A program made the position numbers and the translations under genes. From an uncultured Clostridia bacterium (GTDB taxonomy: Bacteria; Bacillota; Clostridia; Christensenellales; Borkfalkiaceae): 64,000 nt of DNA. Of the stretch, positions 1,965-54,994 are shown piece by piece. Numbering within the stretch: the stretch's first letter is position 1; each line of letters starts with the position of its first letter. The notes below the pieces were generated by a model, which was given only the letters and a program-made list of their open reading frames with translations, did no database searches and was not told the DNA's origin. The DNA lies in assembly GCA_947630325.1 (NCBI GenBank), contig CANRHB010000001.1, positions 93,579-157,578 on the forward strand, in the 5' to 3' direction.

Positions 1965-2564
1965 ATGGCTCCTCTTTTTTTGGTGCAAAACCTGTTTTCG
2001 CGCGCTTTTTCACGAAAATGGTGGATGATCTTTTTGATTTTGGCGGTTTTGTGTAGTACTATGTGTGGCATAGTATTTGTTAAGACGCCTGCATTTTACG
2101 AATTCCACCTCAAGCAGTGCGACCGTTTTTTGGACCGCGTATGCTATTCGGACAGAAATGTCTTTCTCATCTTCCTCGAACGAACGGCGGGGAGCGCGCT
2201 TCTCCTGATTCTCGTACTTGTAGGAGGACTGCACCCCGCGCTCCTGCCTCTTCCCGTGCTCGTCCTTTTGTATCGCTCCTACACCTTCGGCGGGGTCCTT
2301 GCCGTACTCTTTTCGGTCTATTCCGTCCCCGGGGCGGTGGTCGCCATTGTCCTGTATCTTCCCATCCATCTCCTTCTCGACGCTCTTTTGCTCCTTGCCG
2401 CGGGTGTCTCCTTTTGGCGCGCATTCTGCTTTTCCTTTTGCGCGGGCGATTGGAAGGAACTTTTGTGCGATTTTCTCTTCCTCCTTGCGCTCCTCGTCCT
2501 CGTGTGCCTTGTTGAAATGATCCTTCTTTTCGCCCTCTTTCACCCGCTCGGTAATCTCCTTTGA
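1965..2564 (+). CDS. spoIIM: stage II sporulation protein M-like membrane protein
   Basis: 199 aa, about 5 TM segments, N-terminal TM then soluble stretch then hydrophobic repeats as in SpoIIM/DUF95; start codon uncertain. Confidence 0.55.
   Translation: MAPLFLVQNLFSRAFSRKWWMIFLILAVLCSTMCGIVFVKTPAFYEFHLKQCDRFLDRVCYSDRNVFLIFLERTAGSALLLILVLVGGLHPALLPLPVLVLLYRSYTFGGVLAVLFSVYSVPGAVVAIVLYLPIHLLLDALLLLAAGVSFWRAFCFSFCAGDWKELLCDFLFLLALLVLVCLVEMILLFALFHPLGNLL
2055..2075. repeat. AT-rich palindrome family copy (AGTACTATG-TGTGG-CATAGTAT), inside CDS
   Basis: 7-bp arms TACTATG/CATAGTA with 5-nt loop; flank TTTTGTGTA matches the copy at 54962. Confidence 0.8.
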
Positions 2565-8713: not shown

Positions 8714-9037
8714 TTACCTTTTCGAGGAAAGAAACTCTGCGTAATTCAAAAGTTCCCGCCGAAGCGGCTGGGTGAGAGCGCCATATACTGCAAGGAGTTT
8801 CTGCTCCTCCTCCGTCAGCCGCCCATCAATGCGCACCACGCCAAAGTCGTCCTCTCTTCCGAGCAAATAATCTGCCGAACAGGAAAAACAGTCGGCAAGG
8901 GCGCAGATAAAACCTGCCGTCGGTTCGCTCAATCCCTTCTCCCAATAGTCCACCGACTTCTGACTGCAACCGATTTTTCCCGCCAACGTGCGCTGGCTCA
9001 TATCATTTTCCATTCGCAAAGTTTTAATGCGGTTCAT
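8714..9037 (-). CDS. XRE-family helix-turn-helix transcriptional regulator
   Basis: MSQRTLAGKIGCSQKSVDYWEKGLSEP HTH_3 signature; AAGGGG RBS. Confidence 0.85.
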   Translation of the reverse strand: MNRIKTLRMENDMSQRTLAGKIGCSQKSVDYWEKGLSEPTAGFICALADCFSCSADYLLGREDDFGVVRIDGRLTEEEQKLLAVYGALTQPLRRELLNYAEFLSSKR

Positions 9038-10480: not shown

Positions 10481-11480
10481 ACGGGTTTTGCGCGTACTCT
10501 TGGCGGGTTTTTTGGCGTTTCTTCTCGCTCTTTGCCTAAGTCCCATGGGAATGAGCGGGGCAAATGCCGCAACGCCGAGCGAAGCGGAGTGCGTGATCGA
10601 AGTCTCTTCCCGCCGCTTTCTGCACGAAAAAAACGCCCGCGACTGCCTGCCCATGGCGAGTACCACCAAGATCATGACCGCAATCCTCATCCTCGACGAC
10701 TGCGACCTCAACGCCGAGATCGTCATTCCCAAGGAGGCCGAAGGGGTAGAGGGGTCGAGCGTCTATTTGAAGGCAGGGGAGGTGTACACGGCGGAGGAGC
10801 TTCTGTACGGTCTGATGTTGCGCTCGGGAAACGACTGCGCCGTGGCGCTTGCGCTCTTCCACAGCGGGAGCGTGGAGGCGTTCGCCCGCAAAATGAACGA
10901 AAAAGCGGCGCTTCTCGGCGCAGAGGACACCTTCTTTGTCAACCCGCACGGACTCCCCGCAAAGGGGCACCACACCACCGCAAAAGACTTAGCGATCATT
11001 GCTTCCTATGCAATGGAGAACCAAACTTTTGAAAAAATCGTGTCTACGAAGTACTATGTCAGACATAATTGGCAAAACAAGAACAAAATGTTGTGGAATT
11101 TCGAGGGGGCTTGCGGGGTAAAGACGGGTTTTACCGTCAATGCGGGGCGTTGCCTCGTGACGAGCGCGGAACGGGACGGCATGAAACTCGTCTCCGTTGT
11201 GCTCAATTCTCCTCAAATGTATGAGCGCACGGCGGAGCTCTTGAACGGCGCGTTCGGGAGCTATCACATGGAGACGCTATTCGACTGCGCGGAGCCCATT
11301 GCGGGACTTTCGGCAAAACGGAGTTTTTGTTATCCGCTTAAAGAGGGCGAACGGGATCGCGTCTCTATGAAAGTGAACAAGTGCGACCCTCTCCCCGAGA
11401 CAAAGGGCGATTTTGCGGGGACGATGCAAATCTTCCTCGAAAACAGCTTGCTTTTTTCCCAAAATTTGTATATCATGTAA
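10473..11480 (+). CDS. D-alanyl-D-alanine carboxypeptidase (peptidase S11)
   Basis: Signal peptide MSKRVLRVLLAGFLAF; STTK, SGND, KTGFT motifs; ATG overlaps ytfJ stop. Confidence 0.9.
   Translation: MSKRVLRVLLAGFLAFLLALCLSPMGMSGANAATPSEAECVIEVSSRRFLHEKNARDCLPMASTTKIMTAILILDDCDLNAEIVIPKEAEGVEGSSVYLKAGEVYTAEELLYGLMLRSGNDCAVALALFHSGSVEAFARKMNEKAALLGAEDTFFVNPHGLPAKGHHTTAKDLAIIASYAMENQTFEKIVSTKYYVRHNWQNKNKMLWNFEGACGVKTGFTVNAGRCLVTSAERDGMKLVSVVLNSPQMYERTAELLNGAFGSYHMETLFDCAEPIAGLSAKRSFCYPLKEGERDRVSMKVNKCDPLPETKGDFAGTMQIFLENSLLFSQNLYIM
11051..11069. repeat. AT-rich palindrome family copy (degenerate right arm), inside CDS
   Basis: GTACTATGTCAGACATAAT matches the 19-mer at 13191/15721 in 17 of 19 positions. 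Confidence 0.7.
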
Positions 11481-12258: not shown

Positions 12259-12864
12259 TTAATAGCTTCTCAAAAGCCCGACGACTTTGCCCAAAATTTG
12301 GACGCCGCTCGTCTCGTCGAGCACAAAGTCGGCGAGTTTTTCGTTCTCGGGGTGAAGAACGATCTTTCCGTCACGGCGGAAGAACCGCTTCACCGTCGCG
12401 CCCTCGTCCACGCCGTCGTTAAACAGAGCCACCACAATGTCGCCGTTCTCGGCAGCATCCTGCTTCTTGACGACCACCTTATCACCGTCGAAGATGCCGG
12501 CTTCTATCATGCTCTCGCCGCTCACACGGAGGAGAAAGAGATCGTCGCCCTTGAATTCCGCGGCGGGCAGGGTGTACATGTCCTCGAAATTTTCCTGCGC
12601 CAAAATGGGCTGACCAGCGGTGACGGTACCGATGAGGGGAGCCCGCACGGTCGAAACGCTTCGCACGGAGACAGCGCGCTTTTTGTTGTCCGCCTTGTTG
12701 AGAAATCCCTGTTCGCGCAGACGGTTGACATAGCTATACGCCGTCGCCGTCGATTTAATGCCCAAATCGCGGCACATATCCCTGACAGTGGGGGGGAACC
12801 CGTTTTCATCGCAATAGCGGTCGATATAGCGAACCACCTCTTCGAGCTTCTTTTGATCGATCAT
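12259..12864 (-). CDS. lexA: LexA repressor (S24 peptidase)
   Basis: Winged-helix N-terminus, VSGESMIEAGI Ser and VVVKK Lys of the self-cleavage dyad. Confidence 0.92.
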   Translation of the reverse strand: MIDQKKLEEVVRYIDRYCDENGFPPTVRDMCRDLGIKSTATAYSYVNRLREQGFLNKADNKKRAVSVRSVSTVRAPLIGTVTAGQPILAQENFEDMYTLPAAEFKGDDLFLLRVSGESMIEAGIFDGDKVVVKKQDAAENGDIVVALFNDGVDEGATVKRFFRRDGKIVLHPENEKLADFVLDETSGVQILGKVVGLLRSY

Positions 12865-12881
12865 TTTTCACCTCCAAGGAC

Positions 12882-12910
12882 ATTATAACACAAATAAAAA
12901 AATATTGCAA
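12882..12910 (-). promoter_or_regulatory. lexA promoter TTGCAA-17-TATAAT
   Basis: Minus-strand -35 at 12910-12905 and -10 at 12887-12882; GGAGG RBS downstream. Confidence 0.65.
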
Positions 12911-12921
12911 ACAAACGTTCT
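12908..12921. promoter_or_regulatory. SOS (Cheo-type) box AGAACGTTTGTTTG overlapping the lexA -35
   Basis: Matches Firmicute CGAAC-N4-GTTCG in 12 of 14 positions. Confidence 0.6.
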
Positions 12922-12953
12922 ATGTTTTTGAAAAATTTTTATAATTTTTTTTC

Positions 12954-12982
12954 TTGTATTTTGAGGAAGAATGCACTATAAT
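12954..12982 (+). promoter_or_regulatory. promoter TTGTAT-17-TATAAT for the Cys-rich ORF
   Basis: Hexamers at 12954-12959 and 12977-12982; AAAGGGGAAAGGGG RBS region follows. Confidence 0.55.
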
Positions 12983-13002
12983 AAAGGGGAAAGGGGAACG
13001 CT

Positions 13003-13188
13003 ATGGAAACGAAGATGTGCGTCTTGGACGAAACGAAGGAATGCGACGGGTGCTTGGAATGCGAGGTGTGCGACCTCGATCCCAACAAAATTTGCGACAA
13101 CTGCGGCAAGTGCCTCGACATCAAGGAATTCGCCACCATCAAAATCGACAAAATTTATACCGATCCCAATGAATACCACGAGAAATAG
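13003..13188 (+). CDS. small cysteine-rich protein (61 aa, 8 Cys)
   Basis: CDGCLECEVC...CDNCGKC (CxxCxxCxxC-N8-CxxCxxC); purine-rich RBS; divergent from lexA. Confidence 0.65.
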   Translation: METKMCVLDETKECDGCLECEVCDLDPNKICDNCGKCLDIKEFATIKIDKIYTDPNEYHEK

Positions 13189-13190
13189 TG

Positions 13191-13209
13191 TACTATGTCA
13201 GACATAGTA
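13191..13209. repeat. AT-rich palindrome TACTATGTC-A-GACATAGTA (perfect 9+9)
   Basis: Lies exactly between the convergent stops at 13188 and 13211; identical 19-mer at 15721. Confidence 0.9.
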
Positions 13210-13210
13210 A

Positions 13211-14443
13211 CTATATCTTGCGGTATTCCCGAAATTGTTGCGCATAGATCGCGGGAATCAAAGCCTCGATCTCCGTGCCGTCGTCGGTATAGTTTACCTT
13301 CTGTTCATAAATCAGCGGGCGGAGCGGGGCGAATTTTCCCTCCATGGTATAGGGAATAAAGAGGATCGCGCGCACAAAATTTTCTTCCAAACTTTGAAAA
13401 ATGCGTTTTTTGAGGGCGTCGAGGCCTCTTTTTTCTTTGGCGGAAATAAACACGGCGTCGCGCGGGGCGTCGGTATTCTGCGCTTCCTCCAAATCACACT
13501 TGTTCATGACGATGAGATAGGGAGAGGAAAAGTACATACCGCGCAAAGTGTCGAGGGTGGTGGTAAGCTGGGTTTGAAAATCTCCCGCCGCATCGCAGAC
13601 AATGAGCGCTAAATCGCAATGCACAGCGCTCTCGAGCGTCGATTTGAACGCTTCGATGAGGTTGTGCGGCAAATTTTGCAAAAATCCGACGGTATCGACG
13701 AGCAAAAATGGGACCCCGTCGATCTCGAATGCCCGCGCGGTGGGGTCGAGTGTCGCAAACAGCGCGTCCTTTGTAAAGACTTCCGCGCCCGTCAGAGCGT
13801 TCAAAAGGGTGGACTTCCCCGTGTTCGTGTAGCCGACGAGGGCAACGGTGATCACCCGCTCCTTCTTTCTGCGCTCCACTTGGAAGGCGCGGCGGCGCTC
13901 CGTCTCTTTGAGTTTTTCTTCCAACGTATGGATGCGCGCACGGATGTGACGGCGGTCGGTCTCGAGTTGGGTTTCCCCGGGACCGCGCGTGCCGATGCCG
14001 CCTCCGAGACGGGAGAGCGCTTCGCCCTTGCCCTTGAGCCGCGGATAGAGATATTTGAGTTGGGCGAGTTCCACCTGTAACTTTCCCTCGCTGCTCTCGG
14101 CGCGCAGAGCGAAAATGTCGAGGATGAGGGTGGTGCGGTCGATGACCTTCTTCCCGTCGAGCGCCTTGGAAATGTTGAGCGTTTGGGAAGGGGAGAGTTC
14201 TCCGTTGAAGAGCACGGTGAGTTCCAAACCGTCGAGCCGCTCCCGGAGTTCCTCCAATTTTCCTTCGCCGATGTAGGTGGCCGGGTTGACTTCGCGCACG
14301 TTCTGGTAGATGGTGCCCGCGTATTCCGCGCCCGCGCTCTCGATGAGCGCCACCGCCTCGCCGTGCAAAATTTTATAATTTTCTCCCTCGATCGGTTGGA
14401 TAATATACACGATCTCGGGCTTTTTTGCCAGATTATTCGTCAT
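13211..14443 (-). CDS. hflX: GTPase HflX
   Basis: GYTNTGKSTLLNALTG (G1), DTVGF (G3), NKCD (G4), HflX N-terminal domain. Confidence 0.92.
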   Translation of the reverse strand: MTNNLAKKPEIVYIIQPIEGENYKILHGEAVALIESAGAEYAGTIYQNVREVNPATYIGEGKLEELRERLDGLELTVLFNGELSPSQTLNISKALDGKKVIDRTTLILDIFALRAESSEGKLQVELAQLKYLYPRLKGKGEALSRLGGGIGTRGPGETQLETDRRHIRARIHTLEEKLKETERRRAFQVERRKKERVITVALVGYTNTGKSTLLNALTGAEVFTKDALFATLDPTARAFEIDGVPFLLVDTVGFLQNLPHNLIEAFKSTLESAVHCDLALIVCDAAGDFQTQLTTTLDTLRGMYFSSPYLIVMNKCDLEEAQNTDAPRDAVFISAKEKRGLDALKKRIFQSLEENFVRAILFIPYTMEGKFAPLRPLIYEQKVNYTDDGTEIEALIPAIYAQQFREYRKI

Positions 14444-15491
14444 TTTCTTCCTTTTTATGCAATTTTACAGCATTGGCGACCGAGCGGCGGTGGTCCTCTG
14501 TGATCGCCGCATAGTGCTTCCGTGTCGTGTTCACGTCCTTGTGCCCGAGCACGTCCGCCACAATATAGATGTCGCCCGTCTCGCGGTAGAGGCTTGTGCC
14601 ATAGGTGGAGCGCAGTTTGTGCGGCGTGATTTTTTTGAGAGGGGAGACGATTTGTGCGTACTTTTTGACGAGATTTTCGACCGCGCGCACGGTGATCCGA
14701 CGGTATTGCATGGAGAGAAAGAGGGCATGTTCGTCCTTCGGGACCCGCTTATCCTCCTGTTTTTGGGCGATATAGGTGGCAAGCGCGTCGCCGACCTCCT
14801 CCGAAAAGTACAAAATCGCCTTGTTGCCGCCCTTGCGGGTGACCAAAAAAGAGTTGTCGGTGAAGTTGATGCTCTCGTTGTTGAGCCCGACGAGCTCCGA
14901 AATACGGATGCCCGTGCCCAAAAAGAGGGTCAGGATCGCCGTGTCGCGGACTTTCGTCTTTTCATGGTAACCGTCGGCGTGATGGGGGAGGCCGCTCCCG
15001 TCCTCGGCAACGTCCAAGATCGCCGAAACTTCGTCGCGTTCGAGGCGGATGATCTCTTTTTCGTGAAGTTTTGGCGTGGAGACCTTGGAGGTGTTGTTGA
15101 CTTCGATGAGCCCCTTGTTGAAAAAGTATTTGAAGAGGGAACGGACGGTGGACAGCTTGCGCGCCTTGGCACGCTCGTTGCAGGACAGCCGTTTTTCGCC
15201 ATAAGTATAATTGGAGAGATAACTCAAAAAGATTTCCATGTCGGTGTCGGTGACTTGCTCGAGATCTTCGAGGGTAATATCGCACACCGCCTTGCCGCGG
15301 AATTTTTTCTTGGAGAGGAAGTCGAAGAAAATGCGCAAGTCGTAGCAGTAGTTGAGCCGCGTCAAAACGCTCGTGCGGTTCTCGACGCCGCGCAGGAAAT
15401 CTTCGCAGAAGGCGGGCAGTTCCGCAAGAAGTTCGTCAATGCGGTCGAGATTTTTGAGATTTCGTTCCTGATAGTAGTCATCCGTTTTCAT
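14433..15491 (-). CDS. tyrosine recombinase, XerC/XerD family
   Basis: HKLRSTYGTSLY and LGHKDVNTTRKHY catalytic motifs; overlaps hflX start by 11 nt (operon); start 15491 preferred. Confidence 0.8.
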   Translation of the reverse strand: MKTDDYYQERNLKNLDRIDELLAELPAFCEDFLRGVENRTSVLTRLNYCYDLRIFFDFLSKKKFRGKAVCDITLEDLEQVTDTDMEIFLSYLSNYTYGEKRLSCNERAKARKLSTVRSLFKYFFNKGLIEVNNTSKVSTPKLHEKEIIRLERDEVSAILDVAEDGSGLPHHADGYHEKTKVRDTAILTLFLGTGIRISELVGLNNESINFTDNSFLVTRKGGNKAILYFSEEVGDALATYIAQKQEDKRVPKDEHALFLSMQYRRITVRAVENLVKKYAQIVSPLKKITPHKLRSTYGTSLYRETGDIYIVADVLGHKDVNTTRKHYAAITEDHRRSVANAVKLHKKEENDE

Positions 15492-15497
15492 GGCAAC

Positions 15498-15506
15498 ATT
15501 ATAGCA
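15498..15506 (-). promoter_or_regulatory. extended -10 (TGcTATAAT) 6 nt upstream of ATG 15491: leaderless candidate
   Basis: Minus strand reads TGCTATAAT GTTGCC ATG; no SD before either candidate ATG. Confidence 0.4.
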
Positions 15507-15720
15507 CATCGGGGGAGAGATGTCAATTTTACGAATAGTTAAAAGAAAAATTTTGTGTCCCGCCCTATGGGGGGAGAGGAAAAAACCACCCGACCGACAT
15601 CTATAACTATTCGCAAAACCTCAGTTTTACGAATAGATAGGGGTATTTTGACGGGTTTTGACCAGAATATATGCCGTTTTTGCGTCCGACTGCCAACCGA
15701 CGCATTTTTTCGGAGAAAAG

Positions 15721-15757
15721 TACTATGTCAGACATAGTATCTATGCGTGACATAGTA
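15721..15757. repeat. two tandem AT-rich palindromes
   Basis: TACTATGTCAGACATAGTA (15721-15739) then TCTATG-CGTGA-CATAGTA (15740-15757), directly after the GH13 stop. Confidence 0.9.
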
Positions 15758-35375: not shown

Positions 35376-36599
35376 TCAGTCCATTGGAATGCCCATTCCC
35401 GCTGCATAGCCCGTCGCAAAGGCGATATGGAGGTTGAACCCGCCCGTAAAGGCGTCCAAATCGAGCGCCTCGCCGCAAAAAGCGAGCCCATGCACGAGTT
35501 TGCTCTGCATCGTCTTGGGGTCGATCTCCCCGAGCGAGACCCCGCCCGACGTGATCACCGCCTCGTCAAAACCGCGCAGTTTCGCGGGGTGAAGCGGAAA
35601 GGCTTTGAGCGCGGACAGAAGCCCCCGCCGCTCCTCCGCAGTGACGGCGTTCGCCTGCTTTTCGGGGGAAATTTTCGCCGTCCGAAGGACGAGAAGCCCC
35701 AAATTTTGCGGCAGAAGCCCGCGGATGACGTTCTTCATCTGCTCGTTTTTGCGCTCCGAAAAGTCCCGCAAGAGGCGAGTATCAAGCTGTTTTTCGTCGA
35801 GCGCAGGCTTGAAATCGAGGAATAGATCGAGTTCCCCAAGAGGCAGGCGGTTGATGAGCGCGGAGAGGCTCAAAACGAGCGGCCCGCTTACGCCGTAATG
35901 GGTGAAGAGCAGTTCCCCCATTTGGGAGAAGAGCGTCTTTTGCCCGCGTCGGCATTGCAGCACGCAGTTTTTGACCGAGATCCCCTGCGCCGAAGAGAGG
36001 TCCTCTTTTGTCTCGATCCCCACAAGGGAGGGAACGCAGGGCACGAGCGTGTGGCCCGCCTCCTTTGCAAAGCGCGGTCCGTCGCCCGTGGAGCCCGTGG
36101 AGGGATAGCTGAGCCCTCCCGTCGCAACGATGCAAAAATCGCAAAAAATCTCCTCATTTGCAAGTATTATGCCACGCATAGTACTATGCAAAAGGTCGAT
36201 TTTCAAAACTTCGCTGTTAAATTTGAAGGTAACTCCCGCCTCTCGGCACATTTTTTCGAGGGTTTTCGTCACATCGCTTGCATGGTCGGAGACGGGAAAG
36301 ACGCGGTTTCCCCTCTCCGTTTTGAGGGCCAGCCCGTTCTCTTCGAGAAGTTCCATCAAGGCGCGGGGCGGAAATCGGTACACTGCGCCGCGCAAAAACT
36401 TCTCCCCGCGCACGACGTTTTGCAAAAATTCGTCGGGCGGGCAGTCGTTGGTGAGGTTGCACCTCCCCTTTCCCGTGATATAAATTTTTTTGCCGAGTTT
36501 TTCGTTCTTCTCGACGAGGACGACTTCGTGTCCGCTCTTTGCGGCGGCATATGCCGCAAGGAGCCCGCTTGCGCCGCCGCCCACTACCGCGACTTTCAT
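35376..36599 (-). CDS. HI0933-family FAD-dependent oxidoreductase
   Basis: VAVVGGGASGLLAA dinucleotide fold, ATGGLSYPSTGSTGDG motif. Confidence 0.85.
   Translation of the reverse strand: MKVAVVGGGASGLLAAYAAAKSGHEVVLVEKNEKLGKKIYITGKGRCNLTNDCPPDEFLQNVVRGEKFLRGAVYRFPPRALMELLEENGLALKTERGNRVFPVSDHASDVTKTLEKMCREAGVTFKFNSEVLKIDLLHSTMRGIILANEEIFCDFCIVATGGLSYPSTGSTGDGPRFAKEAGHTLVPCVPSLVGIETKEDLSSAQGISVKNCVLQCRRGQKTLFSQMGELLFTHYGVSGPLVLSLSALINRLPLGELDLFLDFKPALDEKQLDTRLLRDFSERKNEQMKNVIRGLLPQNLGLLVLRTAKISPEKQANAVTAEERRGLLSALKAFPLHPAKLRGFDEAVITSGGVSLGEIDPKTMQSKLVHGLAFCGEALDLDAFTGGFNLHIAFATGYAAGMGIPMD
36165..36188. repeat. AT-rich palindrome family copy, inside CDS
   Basis: TATTATG-CCACG-CATAGTA followed by CTATG (the latter forms the CATAGTACTATG 12-bp palindrome). 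Confidence 0.75.
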
Positions 36600-47503: not shown

Positions 47504-47508
47504 ACAAT

Positions 47509-47529
47509 TATGTCTGACATAGTACTATG
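47509..47529. repeat. AT-rich palindrome family copy
   Basis: TATGTC-T-GACATA plus CATAGTACTATG (perfect 12-bp palindrome), 24 nt after the purB stop. Confidence 0.8.
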
Positions 47530-47552
47530 CTAACGTCGTTTTTTCAAAAGTT

Positions 47553-54961: not shown

Positions 54962-54994
54962 TTTTGTGTACTATGTCACGCATAGTACACAAAA
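54962..54994. repeat. AT-rich palindrome, longest copy (perfect 14+14)
   Basis: TTTTGTGTACTATG-TCACG-CATAGTACACAAAA, 13 nt after the MATE stop. Confidence 0.9.

Follow-up and report, generated by a model that had tools for sequence, protein, structure and literature searches.

A polar 28-bp DNA element with the layout of a replication fork trap around a dif-like site in Borkfalkiaceae

Introduction

A family of 28-bp asymmetric DNA elements occupies the region of the replication terminus in genomes of one genus of Borkfalkiaceae, and its members point at a dif-like site from both sides of the chromosome. The family is conserved, asymmetric, confined to the terminus, indifferent to the genes in which or beside which it lies, and convergent on dif, which is the layout of a replication fork trap. 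We propose, with a probability of roughly 45%, that the element is a Ter-like polar terminus site for a sequence-specific DNA-binding protein and would form a barrier of the fork-trap type. Somewhat more tentatively, the elements could be the cis part of a third, independently evolved fork trap, or of a CTCF-like polar barrier to SMC complexes and translocases around dif. The binder would then belong to an undescribed protein family of Christensenellales-type gut Clostridia, and selection on site placement would have rewritten eight-residue stretches of the essential enzymes Dxs, MiaA, GlmS and PBP1.

The known fork traps are only two, Tus-Ter and RTP-Ter, which have narrow taxonomic ranges and are thought to be convergent (PMC10331603). 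The family described here bears on the question of how most bacteria, including all Clostridia, organise termination. As a sequence-defined, positionally conserved and polar family it offers a concrete handle on this question, and the 28-mer can be used as bait for the binder. Additionally, the copies located inside genes show, in a clean natural case, how selection on a DNA site can override the sequence of a protein.

The analysis started from a window of 64,000 nucleotides (the whole stretch of DNA examined), which corresponds to positions 93579-157578 of contig C1 in the source assembly (1.97 Mb, 40 contigs, 54.6% GC; hereafter G000).

The Element and Its Copies in the Window

The palindrome TACTATG-N3-7-CATAGTA occurs exactly four times in the window, at 2057-2075, 13191-13209, 15721-15739 and 54969-54987, and not once in 100 shuffles of the window. 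Allowing up to two mismatches adds copies at 11052-11070, 15739-15757, 36165-36183 and 47506-47524 and brings the total to eight. With up to three mismatches there are nine matches against 0.45 expected, one of which (61229, three mismatches) is probably due to chance. By the two counts, the chance expectation for copies in the window is thus 0 to 0.45. In the whole of G000, approximately 38 copies were found at about 29 loci, and the reversed sequence, used as a control, gave no match at a PWM score of 20 or more.

Oriented alignment of the sites revealed that the 19-mer is the core of a 28-nt element, TTKRCATAG-TACTATG-YSWGA-CATAATA. Among the aligned sites, variation is found in the central 5 nt and the half-sites are near invariant. 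The dyad is systematically unequal: in 28 of the 42 strong sites, position 3 of the 19-mer is C and its counterpart, position 17, is A, a combination that cannot pair. On the right, the half-site continues inward as TGACATAATA, and the left half bears an additional inverted half-site, CATAG. In most copies the downstream half reads CATAAT and not CATAGT, with TG one base upstream in about half of them, and the downstream end, TGACATAAT, resembles an extended -10 box. The RNA fold of the consensus element is weak (-2 to -4 kcal/mol, z about -0.5), and good folding is limited to the rare perfect palindromes of the family. This combination of unequal dyad halves and poor RNA folding fits recognition by a protein and not a hairpin. 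Cores are also found in tandem arrays of 2 to 4, for example at C2 62436-62530 and C7 71761-71847.

The features of the window to which the text refers are as follows.

2048..2075, plus strand: polar site (TTTGTGTAG + TACTATGTGTGGCATAGTA) in a membrane-protein ORF (1965-2564), encoding VLCSTMCGIV
11043..11070, plus strand: polar site in a DD-carboxypeptidase gene (Peptidase_S11 domain), encoding STKYYVRHNW
13182..13209, plus strand: innermost left site, with the perfect 9+1+9 palindrome TACTATGTCAGACATAGTA and without the usual extension
14433..15509, minus strand: XerS-like tyrosine recombinase gene (NF003462 XerS, 202 bits, below the cut-off of 267 bits)
15607..15636, no strand: candidate dif, CTATTCGCAAAA-CCTCAG-TTTTACGAATAG, a 12+6+12 inverted repeat
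15721-15739 and 15739-15757, no strand: inverted double site with one base shared
36165..36192, minus strand: polar site in an HI0933-like flavoprotein gene, encoding HSTMRGII
47506..47533, minus strand: polar site (TTAGCATAGTACTATGTCAGACATAATT on the minus strand) between the purB stop codon and the purB terminator
54962..54994, no strand: non-polar variant, the perfect 14+5+14 palindrome TTTTGTGTACTATG-TCACG-CATAGTACACAAAA

The leftmost site (2048..2075) lies left of dif and points right, toward it. It is also present in G011, and its 19-mer in G001 and G012 as well; G003 and G014 have neither the site nor an indel at this place. Similarly, the carboxypeptidase site (11043..11070) is present in G000 and G011, and G003 and G014 have YYEPRN/GW at equal length. 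The copy at 13191 is located between convergent genes, 2 nt past the stop codon of a 61-aa ORF and 1 nt from that of hflX. The double site (15721..15757) lies about 85 bp from the dif-like site, between the stop codon of an alpha-amylase-family gene, which 15739-15757 abuts, and the terminator of that gene, and it is kept upstream of xerS in four species. On the other side of dif, the site at 36165..36192 points left, toward it; the Pfam match of its host, the HI0933-like flavoprotein, covers residues 2-402. The copy at 47506 lies 28 nt past the purB stop codon, and that at 54969 lies 19 nt past the stop codon of a MATE transporter gene.

The initial annotation of this DNA had proposed a non-random palindrome family of a composition unlike that of the host DNA, and both points are borne out, the former by the four exact copies and the eight with up to two mismatches against 0 to 0.45 expected. 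Sequence comparison also agrees with it on the identity of the 19-mers at 13191 and 15721, on a second copy in tandem with the latter (15739-15757, which shares one base with the first) and on the perfect 14+5+14 palindrome at 54962-54994. All the copies that it listed are real, but the coordinates of four of them were 1 to 3 nt off. Three copies were correctly placed within coding sequences without a break in the frame (2057, 11052 and 36165). Regarding their hosts, Pfam and NCBIfam confirmed the DD-carboxypeptidase and the flavoprotein, but not the assignment of ORF 1965-2564 to spoIIM, because this ORF has no match in either database. Two of the checks suggested there gave clear outcomes, namely the genome-wide pattern search (about 38 copies, with none in the reversed sequence at a PWM score of 20 or more) and the comparison of in-gene copies with orthologous coding sequences (substitutions in place, no indels). 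To this earlier picture, the present work adds the asymmetric 28-bp element, the terminus and dif-like site within the window, and the flip of orientation at dif.

The Terminus and the dif-Like Site

The cumulative GC-skew maximum and the switch of gene strand from plus to minus coincide at about 107-110 kb of contig C1, which is 13-16 kb in the window. This interval contains the XerS-like gene, the conserved start of which is probably at 15491, and the dif-like 12+6+12 repeat is located directly upstream of this gene in four species. The distance between the double site and dif varies between species. Throughout the genus, the surrounding genes keep the syntenic order scpA, scpB, ytfJ, dacB, rluB, lexA, Cys-rich ORF, hflX, xerS and amylase-family gene, with scpA and scpB at a distance of 8 to 10 kb from dif.

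A third copy of the dif arm (15527-15538) abuts the -35 box of the xerS promoter, a perfect TTGACA-17-TATAAT, and the conserved xerS ATG (15491) follows only about 6 nt past the -10 box. This arrangement of sequence signals suggests that the xerS mRNA may be autoregulated and possibly leaderless.

In the same region, lexA is divergent from the gene of a conserved 61-aa protein with eight cysteines (METKMCVLDETKECDGCLECEVCDLDPNKICDNCGKC...; window 12259-13188), and four species have the pair in synteny at the terminus. The 61-aa Cys-rich ORF, which matches no family, may be under SOS control.

Orientation of the Sites

In 12 of 12 genomes of the genus, the element points to xerS/dif from both sides, with sites in plus orientation on the left and in minus orientation on the right; in the window, the orientation flips at the dif-like site 15607-15636. 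Overall, about 84 sites are consistent with this rule, against 3 to 5 exceptions that are weak or adjacent to dif. Specifically, a PWM scan of four contigs (C1 of G000, G003 and G011, and C4 of G014) yielded 45 consistent sites, the exceptions being two copies beside dif, one weak copy and one near-symmetric copy. In eight further genomes, which were analysed by an asymmetric pattern search and an xerS search followed by the 6-kb flanks, 39 of 40 sites point at xerS. The element thus reads 5' to 3' along fork movement on both arms of the chromosome.

Since 80 to 90% of the genes are co-directional with replication, most sites cannot separate the strand of the gene from the direction of dif. 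Where the two are in conflict, 11 sites follow dif and none follows the gene; the decisive loci are few, about six of them being independent, and they include a site within a head-on PBP1 gene. Some copies depart from the rule or are indifferent to it. A strong copy that overlaps the tsaD start (C13 1896-1914) and a four-copy array past hsp20 that lacks the extension (C2 62436-62530) appear to face against the local direction of replication, and two near-symmetric sites are ambiguous in direction.

At tsaD, the reverse-oriented copy C13:1896-1914 itself provides the ATG and the first seven codons (MSDIVLC), and the gene starts 3 nt past the prfB stop codon. Two degenerate copies at C1:233346-233407 of G000 are located just upstream of the canonical promoter of a plus-strand gene in a mostly minus-strand arm; they point at dif and not along the gene, and the same is seen in G011.

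Confinement to the Terminus Region and Distribution among Genomes

All of the approximately 29 loci of G000 are found on five of its 40 contigs (C1, C2, C7, C13 and C14), which make up 36% of the genome, and 27 of the roughly 38 copies are on C1, the terminus contig. No site is found on the remaining 35 contigs (1.25 Mb), among which is C3, the dnaA contig. On C1, sites occur from 11 to 300 kb, i.e., from -97 to +192 kb relative to dif, and the last 88 kb are empty. In G003 (1.4 Mb), nine of the ten pattern matches are on contig C1 (309 kb), where all 11 to 12 PWM sites lie between -91 and +108 kb from dif and the other 100 kb are empty. In these two measurable genomes, the sites are thus restricted to about 100 to 200 kb on each side of the terminus. 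Because every assembly is a fragmented MAG, the extents of the domain refer to single contigs; the species are mutually rearranged.

Site numbers in the genus range from 10 to 40 per genome, and the density is 20 to 40 sites per 0.3 to 0.5 Mb, or about one per 10 to 15 kb. The nadD-rsfS junction has a site in G000 and G014 and none in G003, where the junction is 185 kb from dif. The thrS gene is on opposite arms in G000 and G003, with the site kept in both, and loci resembling those of C13 and C7 share one contig with typA in G014.

Of 24 species of the genus that were sampled, 23 have exact matches. The 16 further families of the order that were compared have 0 or 1, which is the level of the reversed-pattern control. 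Public contigs with the extended motif belong to "uncultured Clostridia" from rabbit and chicken gut, to Candidatus Gallimonas species and to Borkfalkiaceae. A full-text search of the literature for the motif returned a single match, an unrelated paper on oat.

Sites within and between Genes

Between 32 and 45% of the sites are located within coding sequences, where they are read in at least three frames. In one of these, the site encodes HSTMSDI(I/V), which is found in SpoIIIAE, Dxs and MiaA, and the HI0933-like protein has the variant HSTMRGII; a single octapeptide is thus imposed on three unrelated proteins and a variant of it on a fourth. A second frame, IVLCQTEY, is used in PBP1 and GlmS, and a third, KYYVRHN, in DacB. 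In orthologue alignments no in-CDS site is associated with an indel, and species without the site have other residues at equal length. The dxs gene is an example of conservation at the DNA level: TTA CAT AGT ACT .. TCx GAC ATA (with TCA or TCT) is kept in four species, and the synonymous positions within the site stay conserved while the flanking third codon positions vary.

In G000, the copies that encode HSTMSDI(I/V) or HSTMRGII are located at 66.6, 72.6, 129.7 (window 36165) and 179.0 kb of C1, and in each the native residues are replaced with the length unchanged.

The remaining sites have diverse settings. Some lie between a stop codon and a terminator (C1 11361, window 47506, window 15721-57 and C14 30472), and several are found 17 to 22 nt upstream of start codons, as at an ABC-transporter ATPase gene, tyrA, rsfS and thrS. 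The neighbouring genes are unrelated housekeeping genes, among them thrS, tyrA, rsfS, glpK, hsp20, the dGTPase-dnaG pair, rplI and purB. Copies are gained and lost between species, and orthologous copies persist across species in flanking DNA that is only about 70 to 75% identical.

Another intergenic copy is that of thrS, which is located between a T-box terminator and the ribosome-binding site, past a full promoter. About 20 of 26 species keep a 26-nt element there in the same orientation, with flanks that differ in both length and sequence. In several species its CATAAT abuts or overlaps the Shine-Dalgarno sequence of thrS; a transcript begun at this CATAAT would lack the Shine-Dalgarno sequence, which excludes a working promoter at this place. 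An operator for ThrRS that mimics the tRNA anticodon arm was considered for thrS and rejected, as the loop does not match and about 30 unrelated loci carry the element.

The thrS leader itself (G000 C1:14906-15086) is a T-box riboswitch (51.8 bits, E 1.8e-10). Its score is far below the Rfam gathering score of 93, and so a default scan misses it. At the gathering thresholds, Rfam returned only one tRNA in the window and nothing in 11 other loci.

Comparison with Known Terminus Systems

Among the known systems, RTP-Ter of Bacillus subtilis is the closest, the likeness being one of layout and geometry. Both systems belong to Firmicute hosts and have sites of about 30 bp made of overlapping imperfect inverted repeats, with a strong and a weak part that are putative in the present element. 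In both, two opposed groups of sites flank the terminus (12 of 12 genomes here), copies number tens or fewer, and placement is regardless of gene function. In RTP-Ter, a fork that reaches the weak A half-site first passes, and one that reaches the strong B half-site first is blocked (PMC10331603). In the present element, a dyad core that is strong in sequence is accompanied by a partial extension on the origin-proximal side, and origin-derived forks likewise meet the putatively weak part first. Unlike in B. subtilis, an RTP homologue is absent from the genome searched, and no gene for a terminator protein was seen to carry a site in its promoter. The sites also outnumber those of RTP-Ter 2 to 4 times, and many are located in coding sequences. 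The traps of Escherichia coli and B. subtilis have about ten sites each, and the family described here is denser.

Tus-Ter shares with the family polar asymmetric sites of 20 to 30 bp that are arranged around dif in two opposed clusters, and in E. coli, too, some Ter sites are located within genes. However, Tus is absent here, and the core of the present element is a dyad, whereas a monomer binds the E. coli Ter, which is not a palindrome. The MatP-matS and XerD-XDS systems resemble the family in having palindromic sites restricted to the terminus, in about 20 to 30 copies and often within genes. In contrast to them, MatP is absent here, matS lacks polarity where the present sites are strictly polar, and ACTAT is all that the motif has in common with the dif-like arms CTATTCGTAAAA and TTTTGCGAATAG, while XDS sites resemble the XerD arm of dif. 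KOPS and SRS also switch polarity at dif and are read along replication, but they are 8-mers with hundreds to thousands of copies chromosome-wide, whereas the present family is 28 bp long, has tens of copies (about 38) and is absent from 35 of 40 contigs. REP/BIME sequences also differ from it, given the unstable fold, the pairing that is not kept and the many copies inside coding sequences.

The search for the binding protein covered the known terminator and organiser proteins as well as the neighbours of the sites. In a six-frame search of the whole genome, RTP (PF02334) gave no match at E up to 1, with a positive B. subtilis control. Tus (PF05472) likewise gave none at E up to 1, with a positive E. 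coli control, and the only match to MatP (PF06303) had 12.4 bits and E 0.35, below the cut-off. With all three absent, the binder would be a new protein. No DNA-binding gene adjoining the sites was found among their neighbours, and XerS is an unlikely binder, given dif arms unlike the motif and a distance between the double site and dif that changes from species to species.

Further candidates from the window were also rejected as binders. One of them, the Xre-type HTH gene at 8714-9037, belongs to a set of many paralogues and lacks synteny in both G003 and G014. LexA (12259-12864) and the 61-aa Cys-rich ORF are syntenic at the terminus, and nothing ties either of them to the motif.

Possible Functions of the Element

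A polar fork barrier resembling RTP-Ter of B. subtilis is, in our opinion, the most likely function, where fork arrest is deduced by analogy. An origin-derived fork would meet the weak partial extension first and pass, and a fork that has travelled past dif would meet the strong palindromic core first and be held.

A live alternative, although an unlikely one, is that the same putative binder marks the Ter region as an organiser of the terminus domain or as a polar roadblock or marker for another DNA-tracking machine. The sites would then unload or stall SMC-ScpAB, or guide or stop a translocase of the FtsK/SpoIIIE type, and not replisomes. Confinement and convergence on dif fit this function as well as they fit a fork trap, the density of one site per about 10 to 15 kb is nearer to matS than to Ter, and scpA and scpB are located 8 to 10 kb from dif. 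Moreover, terminus-specific unloading of SMC exists, through MatP/matS and XerD/XDS (PMC11894783). Each particular model for such an organiser nevertheless differs from the family: MatP is absent and matS is non-polar, in contrast to a strictly oriented 28-bp site; the dif-like arms (CTATTCGTAAAA) are unrelated to the motif, unlike in XDS; and KOPS and SRS are chromosome-wide 8-mers, whereas the present sites occupy one region. Compared with a fork trap or a barrier to SMC or translocases, two other functions are much less likely. The initial annotation had offered a form of each, a GntR-like operator and a REP-like 3' mRNA hairpin, together with a role as a recombination target, which is at odds with the quite different arms of the dif-like site beside xerS. 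Its more general suggestion of a protein recognition site is the best molecular reading, given that the half-sites are conserved, the spacer is variable and the hairpin pairing is not kept.

The first of these two functions, an operator of a global transcription factor, is improbable. A dimeric repressor would bind the palindrome, and TTKRCA with TGACATAAT might additionally form a weak promoter of the extended -10 type. The palindromic core with its variable spacer, the CATAAT half with TG upstream, the copies located 17 to 22 nt before start codons and the tandem arrays of 2 to 4 copies are what such a system might show. The promoter was dropped because the -35-like and -10-like boxes are 15 nt apart (sigma-70 expects 16 to 18, and a sigma-70 scan calls none of the copies), because the thrS copy lies downstream of promoter, T-box and terminator and abuts the Shine-Dalgarno sequence in several species, because several copies directly precede a terminator or lie between convergent stop codons, and because the family is confined to the terminus. 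Regarding a regulon, including the GntR-type operator named in the initial annotation, the neighbours are unrelated housekeeping genes with no common function, at least one third of the sites are within coding sequences and far from the next gene, and only one chromosomal region is involved; a regulon would be neither confined to the terminus nor flipped at dif, and the discordant sites follow dif. Promoters for the sporulation factors sigma E, F, G and K were also rejected, as the spacing does not fit their consensus sequences. Even less probable is a selfish repeat of the REP or MITE kind, or else a hairpin in the RNA at the ends of genes, which would have spread locally and acquired its orientation bias through transcription. 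The element is indeed short and palindromic, many copies are found just past stop codons, tandem and inverted clusters exist, and copies are gained and lost between species. However, the 3' mRNA hairpin that had been suggested conflicts with the weak fold of the consensus (-2 to -4 kcal/mol, z about -0.5) and with the C/A at symmetric positions in 28 of 42 sites. The in-CDS copies are substitutions in place with neither indels nor target duplications, and with 32 to 45% of the sites within coding sequences the family is not extragenic. Additionally, orthologous copies are kept at about 70 to 75% flank identity, and confinement to the terminus holds in several species despite rearrangement, as with the thrS site on opposite arms.

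Copies with an Additional Flank

Three copies of the core carry an extra flank, CTATATCTTG (CAAGATATAG on the other strand), at a distance of 1 to 2 nt, and are located as follows.

Window 13210-13219: extra flank CTATATCTTG
G000 C2:62500-62511: extra flank CTATATCTTG
G000 C13:8014-8023: extra flank CTATATCTTG

These copies may form a sub-family, or the flank may be a second site.
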